64,000 nt of DNA from an uncultured Verrucomicrobiae bacterium (GCA_963812605.1 CAWEWF010000004.1:256001-320000); one strand, 5' to 3'. Positions 43,828-45,146 are shown, counted from the first letter of the stretch. The notes: generated by a model not told the origin, from the letters alone. Program-made: numbers and translations.

Positions 43828-43880
43828 ATGAACACCATACGCTGCGCACTAACTGGTTTCGGTAGTTTCCTAACTTGGAG
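43828..43880 (+). CDS. Detached 5' end (first 17 codons) of the RCC1-repeat gene, cut off by IS110-1
   Basis: ATG at 43828 reads MNTIRCALTGFGSFLTW and joins in frame at the AG core to 45083 (RATLRRG...). Confidence 0.7.
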
Positions 43881-43891
43881 CAACTGTCTTT

Positions 43892-44832
43892 TCATAAGGG
43901 TTGGAAAGTAGGTTCTTGGAGCAGGCGATTGAGTAAGATGATGAGTTTGCGCATGACGGCGACCAGGGCGACTTTGGGGGCCTTGCCCTTGGCCACCAAG
44001 CGTTGATAGAAGGGCTGCAATTGCGGGTGGCGAAAGGCCGCCACCAGAGCCGACATGTACAAGGCCCGCCGGGCGGCGGGCCGTCCTCCGCCGATTTGTC
44101 GGCGTCCCCGATGCGGACCACTGTCGCGATTGAAGGGAGCCACACCCGCCAGCGCCGCGGCCTGGCGCCGATTCAGCGTGCCCAATTCCGGCAGCAGCGC
44201 CAACAGCACGACGGCCGTCAGGCGTCCCACGCCGACCACCGAACAGAGTCGGGCGACTTTCTGCGCCAGCGCGGGCTCGGCTTGGACCAAGGCGGCGATC
44301 CACGCGGCGAGCTGTTCCAGGTGTCGATCCAGTTGGCTGAGGTGGCGCTGGATCTCCCGGCGGGCGTCGGGGTGGGTGAGATGCTCCAAGCGGTTGTGCT
44401 CGGCCACGCGCAGCGCCAGGACTTGTTGGCGACGGGTGACCAACTCCGCCAGTTGACTCTGGGCGGCGCTCAACGCGGCGGTCCGGCCGGGCGTACGGCG
44501 GCGCCGTAAGCCGCCAGCACGGCGGCATCCAGTTGGTCAGTCTTGGCCAGCCGACCGGTGGCGCGGGCGAAGTCGCGCACGTGACGCGCGTTGACTACCG
44601 AAACCACTACACCGGCCGCGTGCAGGGCGGCCACGACGGCGCGTTCATAGCCGCCTGTGGCTTCGCCGATGACGTGCACGGATCCCAGAGCTTGCAGCCA
44701 ACGCACCAAGGCGCGGTGGCCCTGAGGGTGGTTGGGAAACTGACGGAACTGCGCGCGGGATCCGCTGGCGGCGTGCAGATCCAGGGTGAGTTTGGCGACA
44801 TCCATTCCGACGTAGACGATCGATGGCAACAT
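43892..44832 (-). CDS. IS110 DEDD recombinase, 1-bp frameshift near 44485
   Basis: [32 protein letters not shown] and VAVMRKL motifs; AGGAGGAG ribosome-binding site. Confidence 0.93.
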
Positions 44833-44839
44833 GGTTAGA

Positions 44840-45060
44840 CTCCTCCTTGCAATGCGAGCCTGGTGGTGGCGCGGATGGGCGCGACCGCCGCTCTGGCAAC
44901 TGTTCGAGCGTACCGACAGGCAACGCGGATGGATCCAGCTCCAAACGGACAGGTCTGAACCGAACCGAGGGCCACGACGATCACTTCCGCGCGCCCTTGG
45001 GGGGCATGCCCCCCAAGGGCCATCCTGTCGCTCCCACACCGGTGGGAAACCAAGCCAGAG
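44840..45060 (-). ncRNA. Predicted bridge RNA of IS110-1 (ends approximate)
   Basis: In 5'-3' order on minus: left target guide CGTGGCCCT (44976-44968), right target guide TTGGAG (44944-44939), left donor guide ACAGTTGC (44903-44896), right donor guide TGCAAG (44851-44846, one G-T wobble). Confidence 0.8.
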
Positions 45061-45082
45061 AGTACCAAAAATTCTAGATACA

Positions 45083-45146
45083 AGGGCCACGCTCCGTCGT
45101 GGCCGCATTGAGCGCGCAACGGACGCAACAGAGCGCGTCCCTCCAA
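45083..45146. repeat. TGGAG-family REP doublet split by IS110-1
   Basis: (TTGG)AGGGCCACGCTCCGTCGTGGCC ... GGACGCAACAGAGCGCGTCCCTCCAA. Confidence 0.8.

Follow-up and report, generated by a model that had tools for sequence, protein, structure and literature searches.

How does an insertion sequence (IS) find the same kind of genomic hairpin again and again? This question is raised by IS110-1, a 1.2-kb IS110-family element that sits within a repetitive extragenic palindrome (REP) of an uncultured Verrucomicrobiae bacterium, in a stretch of 64,000 nucleotides (GCA_963812605.1 CAWEWF010000004.1:256001-320000; hereafter the window). An earlier note on this DNA had proposed that the element carries a bridge RNA with separate guides for target and donor, programmed against this REP family, and that a different bridge system, here called IS110-2, lies nearby. 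Our analysis makes it very probable that positions 43881-45082 of the window (minus strand) hold a copy of an insertion sequence of the IS110 subgroup and that this element is mobilized by bridge-RNA-guided recombination. The window belongs to contig C4 of a soil verrucomicrobial genome assembly of 4.17 Mb, which comprises 15 contigs and is estimated to be 90% complete.

Boundaries, copies and insertion sites of IS110-1

All sequence strings that the earlier note had assigned to IS110-1 were found on the minus strand where it had placed them. The element is also located as described, but its extent of 43875-45110 had to be trimmed to the element proper given above. On the minus strand, the left junction reads CGTGGCC-CT-TGTAT and the right junction ACAGTTG-CT-CCAA (Table 1). 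The postulated empty site, CGTGGCC-CT-CCAA, proved to be real and takes the general form CGTGGCC-CT-CC(A/G)(A/G). The genome contains four full copies of IS110-1 with identical termini and one truncated copy, and the ends deduced for the window copy agree with ten empty sites as well as with the three other full copies. The left flank GAGCGTGGCC-CT precedes all five copies, and the right flanks of the four full copies are CT-CCAA, CT-CCAA, CT-CCGA and CT-CCAG. The 12-mer GAGCGTGGCCCT occurs 16 times, that is at the five occupied sites, at ten empty sites where CC follows, and at one unrelated site. The ten empty sites read GAGCGTGGCC-CT-CC..., and five of the 15 exact left-target sites are occupied by IS110-1. 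The two junctions and the empty sites share no sequence other than CT, which fixes the ends of the element to within the 2-bp core. IS110-1 has no terminal inverted repeats, as neither of its termini, TGTATC... and ...ACAGTTG, is an inverted copy of the other. Its right end comprises just 11 nt after the stop codon, which leaves the left end as the only place for an RNA.

The REP-A family, whose hairpin provides the left target, is small, with 15 units at up to one mismatch and 25 at up to four mismatches in the genome. In 8 of the 11 sites examined, a stem of 7-9 bp ends at the core and has the left target as its 3' arm, as compared to 9.5% of random CT sites; such an enrichment is to be expected when REPs are palindromic. 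The partner arm of the REP pair (45115-45145, minus strand) ends in CGCGTCC-CT-CC as compared to CGTGGCC-CT-CC; this form of the arm is present seven times in the genome when up to four mismatches to the REP-A unit are allowed, and not one of the five IS copies lies next to it. The truncated fifth copy (L005, contig C4 364703-365443) breaks off after about 740 nt of the element and also contains a frame break of its own, and is thus a decayed copy at the same REP motif.

Table 1. Positions of the features of IS110-1, its insertion site and IS110-2, counted from the first nucleotide of the window.
Feature	Position	Strand	Remarks
REP-A hairpin GGCCACG-ACGGAG-CGTGGCC	45085..45104	-	7-pair stem, 6-nt loop
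Left target CGTGGCC	45091-45085	-	3' arm of REP-A hairpin
Core CT, left copy	45083..45084	-	shared by both junctions and empty sites
Left end	44833..45082	-	250 nt, non-coding, predicted to encode the bridge RNA; starts TGTATCTAG
Candidate -10 elements, circle form only	45059..45076	-	predicted; TAGAAT 45076-45071, TGgTACTCT 45067-45059
Left target guide CGUGGCC plus core CU	44968..44976	-	equals left target plus core
Right target guide UUUGGAG plus handshake pair CU	44937..44945	-	guide 44945-44939, pair 44938-44937; reverse complement of CT-CCAAA
Left donor guide AACAGUUGC	44896..44904	-	equals right-end terminus ACAGTTG plus core C
Right donor guide CAAG plus handshake pair GA	44844..44851	-	guide 44849-44846, pair 44845-44844; reverse complement of CT-TG
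Shine-Dalgarno sequence GGAGGAG	44840..44846	-	overlaps 3' strand of donor-binding-loop closing stem
Recombinase, N-terminal frame	44470..44832	-	DEDD/RuvC-like domain (PF01548, E 3.7e-20); ATG 44832, 120 amino acids, then stop
Frameshift site	44482..44483	-	one C of the three other full copies missing (alignment position 601)
Recombinase, C-terminal frame	43892..44473	-	Tnp domain with Ser-Gly motif (PF02371, E 1.2e-15); stop 43894-43892
Right-end terminus = left donor ACAGTTG	43881..43887	-	
Core CT, right copy, plus right target CCAA	43875..43880	-	core 43880-43879, right target 43878-43875
IS110-2	49343-50594	+	second element; coding sequence 49601-50578, 325-amino-acid IS110 recombinase
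IS110-2 target ACCGCCG-CT-ACAGC	49334-49340 and 50597-50601	+	site in a different REP
IS110-2 left and right target guides	49427-49434 and 49451-49458	+	handshake AU
IS110-2 left donor guide and right donor guide CAAG	49494-49501 and 49541-49544	+	handshake CC

Guides and predicted fold of the bridge RNA

The left end contains the guide words in the order that had been anticipated, i.e. left target, right target, left donor and right donor. The word CGTGGCCCT at 44976-44968 is followed by a hairpin and then by TTGGAG at 44944-44939; farther downstream lie ACAGTTGC at 44903-44896 and TGCAAG at 44851-44846. In the predicted bridge RNA, the corresponding guides are CGUGGCCCU, UUUGGAG, ACAGUUGC and CAAG, and they are located in two internal loops of a conserved fold. 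Based on genome-wide word frequencies and 250 nt of one strand, the chance expectations per left end are 0.0021 for CGTGGCCCT, 0.0645 for TTGGAG, 0.0044 for ACAGTTGC and 0.05 for TGCAAG, which puts the ordered set far beyond chance. The right flanks of all four full copies can pair with the right target guide through Watson-Crick or G-U pairs. The right donor guide, which the earlier note had read as TGCAAG, is present but stands only in part: its first two positions are UG, CG, CA or GC among relatives, and we therefore count only the conserved CAAG as guide. Pairing over the longer TGCAAG also requires a G-T pair. As had been claimed, this guide abuts the ribosome-binding site, that is, TGCAAG runs into GGAGGAG, which is followed by the start codon.

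For IS621 of Escherichia coli, left guides are described to pair with the bottom strand and hence to read like the top strand, which in turn is the strand paired by the right guides, and each of the four guide pairings takes in the core (PMC11208160). The same source gives 4 bp for the right-target pairing of IS621, and the positions varied in its donor screen amounted to 7 bp in the left donor and just 2 bp in the right donor. Moreover, once strands have been exchanged, the base 3' of each right guide is reported to pair with the other DNA at position 7 (PMC11208158). At these handshake positions, the target-loop C of IS110-1 faces donor G7 and the donor-loop G faces target C7; in IS110-2, the target-loop A faces donor T7 and the donor-loop C faces target G7. 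Judged by analogy, all four handshake bases fit the IS621 model.

The bridge RNA is predicted to be about 210 nt long, with the recombinase message directly after it. Its fold was derived with RNAalifold from an alignment of 11 rows (three own copies and eight relatives). Besides a 5' stem-loop and a G6/C6 hairpin that is perfectly conserved, it contains two modules with an internal loop each, whose 5' and 3' sides hold the guides. The consensus comprises 48 pairs, 11 of which show compensatory changes. Paired cells amount to 98.7% as compared to 33-50% after a shift of the partners by 1-3 columns, and none of 500 shuffles reached the observed covariation score; these statistics overstate independence, because about four lineages are represented among the rows. 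A covariance model built from the two loops was run on 41 of the 55 distant loci, leaving out 12 with identical upstream 200 nt, L051, whose upstream sequence was too short, and L063, which nearly duplicates L058. In 23 of the 41 loci it matched the coding strand immediately upstream of the recombinase gene, with E<=0.01 in 14 of these.

The segment CAAGGAGGAGTCTAACC (44833-44849, minus strand), which comprises right donor guide, handshake pair, ribosome-binding site and spacer, is invariant in 11 of 11 rows, and a CUC/GAG pairing is predicted in the donor-loop closing stem, where it overlaps the ribosome-binding site. A long-range pairing of left-end positions 16-26 with the ribosome-binding site was considered as well and dropped, since its 5' partner is not conserved in relatives. 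Among copies L002-L004 and the window copy, the G6 run of the conserved hairpin (45014-45019) is G5 in two. In the donor-loop hairpin, the window copy has an extra G at 44859 and the copy on contig C10 has one G fewer.

Co-variation of guides and insertion sites

A search for related loci gave 80, the 25 closest of which (L019-L043) encode proteins with 60-74% identity and derive from metagenome-assembled genomes of Verrucomicrobiae. Comparison of these 25 relatives and the four own copies, in which many of the rows are copies within one genome and hence not independent, revealed that guides co-vary with insertion sites in homologues, the relation on which the earlier note had staked its proposal. 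Four left-guide lineages are found in the IS110-1 clade. The own copies carry CGTGGCC in the left-guide slot and CGTGGCC as left flank (4 of 4 copies), L019 and L020 carry TCCAGCC in both places, the L025 family combines AGTCGCC with the flank AGCCGCC, which involves a G-U pair, and L039 and L041 combine TCCCGCC with TCGCGCC. L023 and L024 have no left junction; for the 23 relatives in which it is readable, left guide and flank agree at 7/7 positions in two cases, 6/7 in 14, 5/7 in five and 3/7 in two.

On the other side of the core, the right guide fits the 5 nt beyond it at 5/5 positions in 17, 4/5 in three and 3/5 in two of 22 readable right junctions. Right guides and sites are UUUGGAG with CT-CC.. 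in the own copies, UUUGUAG with CT-ACAAA in L019 and UUGGUAG with CT-ACCAA in L025. The informative switch is thus that from GGAG with CTCC in the own copies to GUAG with CTAC in relatives. Donor-side co-variation is uninformative because both partners are invariant: the left donor guide is constant in 25 of 25 relatives and the right-end terminus in all 22 with a readable right junction. Two related IS110-2 elements of the same genome, described below, likewise co-vary in guide and insertion site.

The recombinase and its frameshift

The intact allele, represented by the copy on contig C10, encodes 313 amino acids and matches PF01548 (E 1.7e-24) and PF02371 (E 4.5e-15). The protein aligns with the IS621 transposase (PDB 8wt6, 8wt6_A) over residues 5-300 (E 4e-40), and the columns of IS621 D11, E60, D102, D105 and S241-G242 are identical in this alignment; the roles of these D/E/D/D and Ser-Gly catalytic residues are those given in PMC11208158. 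Annotated plasmid relatives with up to 48% identity are named IS110 family transposase. The proteins encoded by the copies on contigs C10, C14 and C8 are 313 amino acids long, with no more than one residue of difference among them. The gene of the window copy is split, and each half matches one of the two domains. The single frameshift mentioned in the earlier note could be confirmed: a coding-strand C is missing between 44482 and 44483, which is private to this copy and causes the frame to stop after 120 amino acids. Programmed frameshifting was rejected, as three copies have a continuous frame. Because the one-base deletion splits the recombinase, the window copy as assembled would be movable only with the protein of the three intact copies.

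Putative circle junction and proposed cycle

A circle-dependent promoter has been described for IS621 (PMC11208160), and the ends of IS110-1 hold candidates for a comparable arrangement. In the putative circle form, ATGAAA of the right end would serve as -35 element at a distance of 17 nt from the left-end TAGAAT, with 9/12 matches; alternatively, TTGCTT across the junction would lie 17 nt from TACTCT. In the corresponding form of IS110-2, the perfect hexamer TTGACA of the right end would be positioned 17 nt from TATCTT across the junction (10/12 matches). A promoter scan of the integrated IS110-1 copy found no promoter-like site. By analogy, the circle-only candidates would agree with the promoter of IS621.

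These features suggest a cycle in which IS110-1 would excise as a circle whose right and left ends meet at the junction ACAGTTG-CT-TGTAT. The junction would place the right-end -35 beside the left-end -10, thereby giving rise to a transcript that contains the bridge RNA and subsequently the recombinase message. The target-binding loop would then pair with the target and the donor-binding loop with the donor, and a recombinase tetramer, presumably bound to this RNA, would use its DEDD site and serine to cut after CT and to exchange strands. One handshake base per loop, the C facing donor G7 and the G facing target C7, may assist in this step. Finally, resolution of the junction would leave the element with CT on both sides.

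IS110-2 and probable natural retargeting

The neighbouring system is a real second element, located at a distance of 4.26 kb in good accordance with the about 4 kb given in the earlier note. As had also been claimed, both elements share the CT core and the start TGTAT and differ in left donor, which is ACGGTAT in IS110-2, and in target (Table 1). The first 8 nt of the left end are common to both, and the recombinases are 39% identical. The guides of IS110-2 are ACCGCCGC, AGCUGUAG, ACGGUAUC and CAAG, placed in an analogous two-loop fold, and its REP hairpin, CGGCGGTC-ATA-GACCGCCG, is represented by 17 units at up to two mismatches.

A sister with 87% identity, IS110-2b, resides on contig C8 (L099, C8:246600-248450) in a third hairpin family, GAAGCGCGG-CT-ACAAC, of which there are at least four empty copies. 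Its left target guide is AAGCGCGGC as compared to GACCGCCGC in IS110-2, and the remaining RNA is nearly unchanged. Where the left ends of the two elements differ, the changes are concentrated in the left target guide, apart from a single one in the donor-loop handshake pair. From sequence comparison, this looks like a natural retargeting event via the left target guide.

The earlier note had further suggested that IS110-1 and IS110-2 may be naturally orthogonal. At the level of guides, orthogonality is supported by the sequences compared above and by divergence of the RNA scaffolds; this support does not extend to protein-RNA recognition. Scaffold divergence follows from the observation that the two-loop covariance model of IS110-1 (R1) detected neither IS110-2 left end at E<=1, which also kept the RNAs of both elements from being joined in a common structural alignment.

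Alternative explanations

Several points weigh against guided recombination by IS110-1. The window copy as assembled cannot make the recombinase, the transcript and its ends are deduced from sequence alone, and the promoter hexamers are weak, with 9/12 matches at best. No circle junction or empty allele appeared as a joint in the merged short-read contigs of four soil runs, and Rfam, applied to 36000-54000, placed no family on the left end at gathering score. The second handshake position is unpaired in IS110-1. Moreover, two of the 23 left junctions of relatives (L021, L022) misfit the left guide, five further ones have two left-guide mismatches, and the co-variation stems from about four lineages of one clade and the IS110-2 pair. 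L021 and L022 look like off-target insertions that fit the right target guide only, and the misfit sites of relatives are consistent with half-match or structure-assisted targeting as treated in 2026 preprints. L030, L033, L034, L036 and L042 occupy hairpins that have the same shape and in which the left target shows two mismatches. One might argue that the guide-like words are non-functional chance matches or remnants of captured targets and that the protein alone picks the site, given that guide function is read here from sequence only. Yet this explanation is hardly credible: the chance expectations are tiny, the words occupy two internal loops of a fold with compensatory changes, they switch together with the insertion site across lineages and between IS110-2 and its sister, and the recombinase is a clear relative of that of IS621. 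We therefore retain guided recombination as the reading of IS110-1. As to the frameshift, an assembly error, which would make the window copy truly intact and autonomous, falls just short of an even chance against real decay, with the odds near even and the family intact either way. Single-base indels between near-identical copies indicate that the consensus of the host assembly may contain indel errors: four otherwise near-identical copies have four indel sites, as many as substitution sites (four), and one of these indels, which shortens the G6 run that is invariant in all relatives, looks like a consensus error. The assembled short-read contigs of the four soil runs, which stem from one study, point in the same direction, as contigs of runs X2 and X3 across 44482 have the extra base and the additional G of the window at 44859 is absent from those of X1 and X3. 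However, these contigs collapse all element copies and are thus mute on the window copy, no contig of the best run, X1, bridges 44461-44482, and the deleted C lies outside any homopolymer. A private substitution at 44356 also points to a genuinely diverged copy; at this base, contigs of X1, X2 and X3 agree with the other copies.

The proposed orthogonality of the two elements meets an objection as well. Each recombinase could use the bridge RNA of the other, or the shared core and TGTAT half-site could lead to cross-reactions and rearrangements. Compatible with this scenario are the common CT core and first 8 nt of the left end, the report that IS621 recombines a half-matched substrate (10.64898/2026.08.31.748434), and the presence of L021 and L022 at sites that match the right guide only. 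It is nevertheless rather unlikely, with perhaps one chance in a few, since the recombinases are just 39% identical, the IS110-1 loop model misses both IS110-2 left ends, the left donors differ at 3/7 and the left targets at 5/7 positions, and guide mismatches are described to be poorly tolerated by IS621 (PMC11208160). Guide-level orthogonality of IS110-1 and IS110-2 thus remains our preferred view. It should be added that 'orthogonal' in 10.1101/2025.05.14.653916 refers to genome-orthogonal donor sequences and not to pairs of orthologues.

Comparison with known IS110 and IS1111 elements

RNA-guided transposition of IS110 elements, targeting of REPs and co-variation of guides and targets are established according to previous reports (PMC11208160, PMC11208158, PMC1525189, PMC11187229, PMC12288879). 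IS110-1 resembles IS621 of E. coli in the two-domain recombinase with identical catalytic columns, the CT core, the lack of terminal inverted repeats, the long left end as opposed to a short right end, and insertion into REPs. The likeness extends to the sense of the guides, inclusion of the core in each pairing, a right donor pairing of 4 nt that consists of the core plus 2 nt, and the handshake beside the core, as far as these are described in PMC11208160 and PMC11208158. On the other hand, the protein match is distant (see above), the RNA is predicted to be about 210 nt long as compared to 177 nt in IS621, and the outer stem of the IS110-1 RNA encloses a G6/C6 hairpin together with the target loop. 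This extra, perfectly conserved hairpin and the overlap of the donor-loop closing stem with the ribosome-binding site, both read from the predicted fold, appear as traits specific to the clade. The host, a soil verrucomicrobial bacterium, and the target sequence also differ.

ISPpu9 and ISPpu10 of Pseudomonas putida are similar to IS110-1 in that multiple copies reside in REP hairpins, a likeness by description and not by sequence. A report on ISPpu10 names a stem-loop located 5' of the paired target as second determinant of specificity (10.64898/2026.03.19.712850), and in most of the sites examined here the left target is the 3' arm of a stem that ends at the core. A downstream RNA such as Ssr9 is impossible in IS110-1 because its right end measures only 11 nt. 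IS1111 elements with their seekRNA (Siddiquee et al., PMC11187229) have in common with IS110-1 the DEDD transposase type and an RNA-guided choice of target. According to this source, they differ in carrying the guide RNA in a long right end and in having subterminal inverted repeats, whereas the RNA of IS110-1 is assigned to the left end. With a right end of 11 nt, IS110-1 falls outside the IS1111 subgroup.

Among the matches listed for literature on IS110 elements and REPs there is no mention of Verrucomicrobia, and on this basis alone we call the IS110-1 clade undiscussed in print; the orthologue tables of PMC11208160 may include it.

Implications

With IS110-1, a phylum that has been little studied gains a well-resolved natural example of a bridge-RNA system, whose ends, empty sites, guides and handshake bases are legible in the sequence, as is a candidate circle promoter. 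It leaves the knowledge of how IS110 elements work unchanged; it is a clean example and no new kind of system. In addition, it extends the set of natural sites where a hairpin provides the left target with its 3' arm, and the same genome offers an apparent instance of natural retargeting by two 87%-identical elements in different hairpins. For the construction of tools, two diverged recombinase/RNA pairs with a common core are available.

A more far-reaching combination, i.e. a translational switch at the ribosome-binding site together with three separately programmed bridge systems including a ready-made orthogonal pair, is tentative and on balance doubtful. The sequence CAAGGAGGAGUCUAACC is invariant across lineages that have just 60-74% protein identity. 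If the combination held, the Shine-Dalgarno sequence of the recombinase itself would be the 3' strand of the donor-loop closing stem in this clade, and translation of the recombinase would be shut off once the bridge RNA folds or is captured by this protein. This would represent a built-in dosage switch coupled to assembly of the guide RNA. Likewise, one genome would harbour three natural bridge systems aimed at three REP hairpins, two of which, IS110-2 (IS110-2a) and IS110-2b, would differ essentially only in the left target guide, and IS110-1 and IS110-2 would constitute the ready-made orthogonal pair.

Further observations in the window

The sole Rfam signal in the region 36000-54000 is a match to a C/D-box snoRNA model at 52380-52435 (minus strand), which with 20.9 bits as compared to a gathering score of 45 and an E value of 0.12 is probably due to chance. 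IS110-1 is flanked by two long, internally repetitive open reading frames on the plus strand, 42151-43815 and about 45170-46669, which look like genes for secreted repeat proteins.

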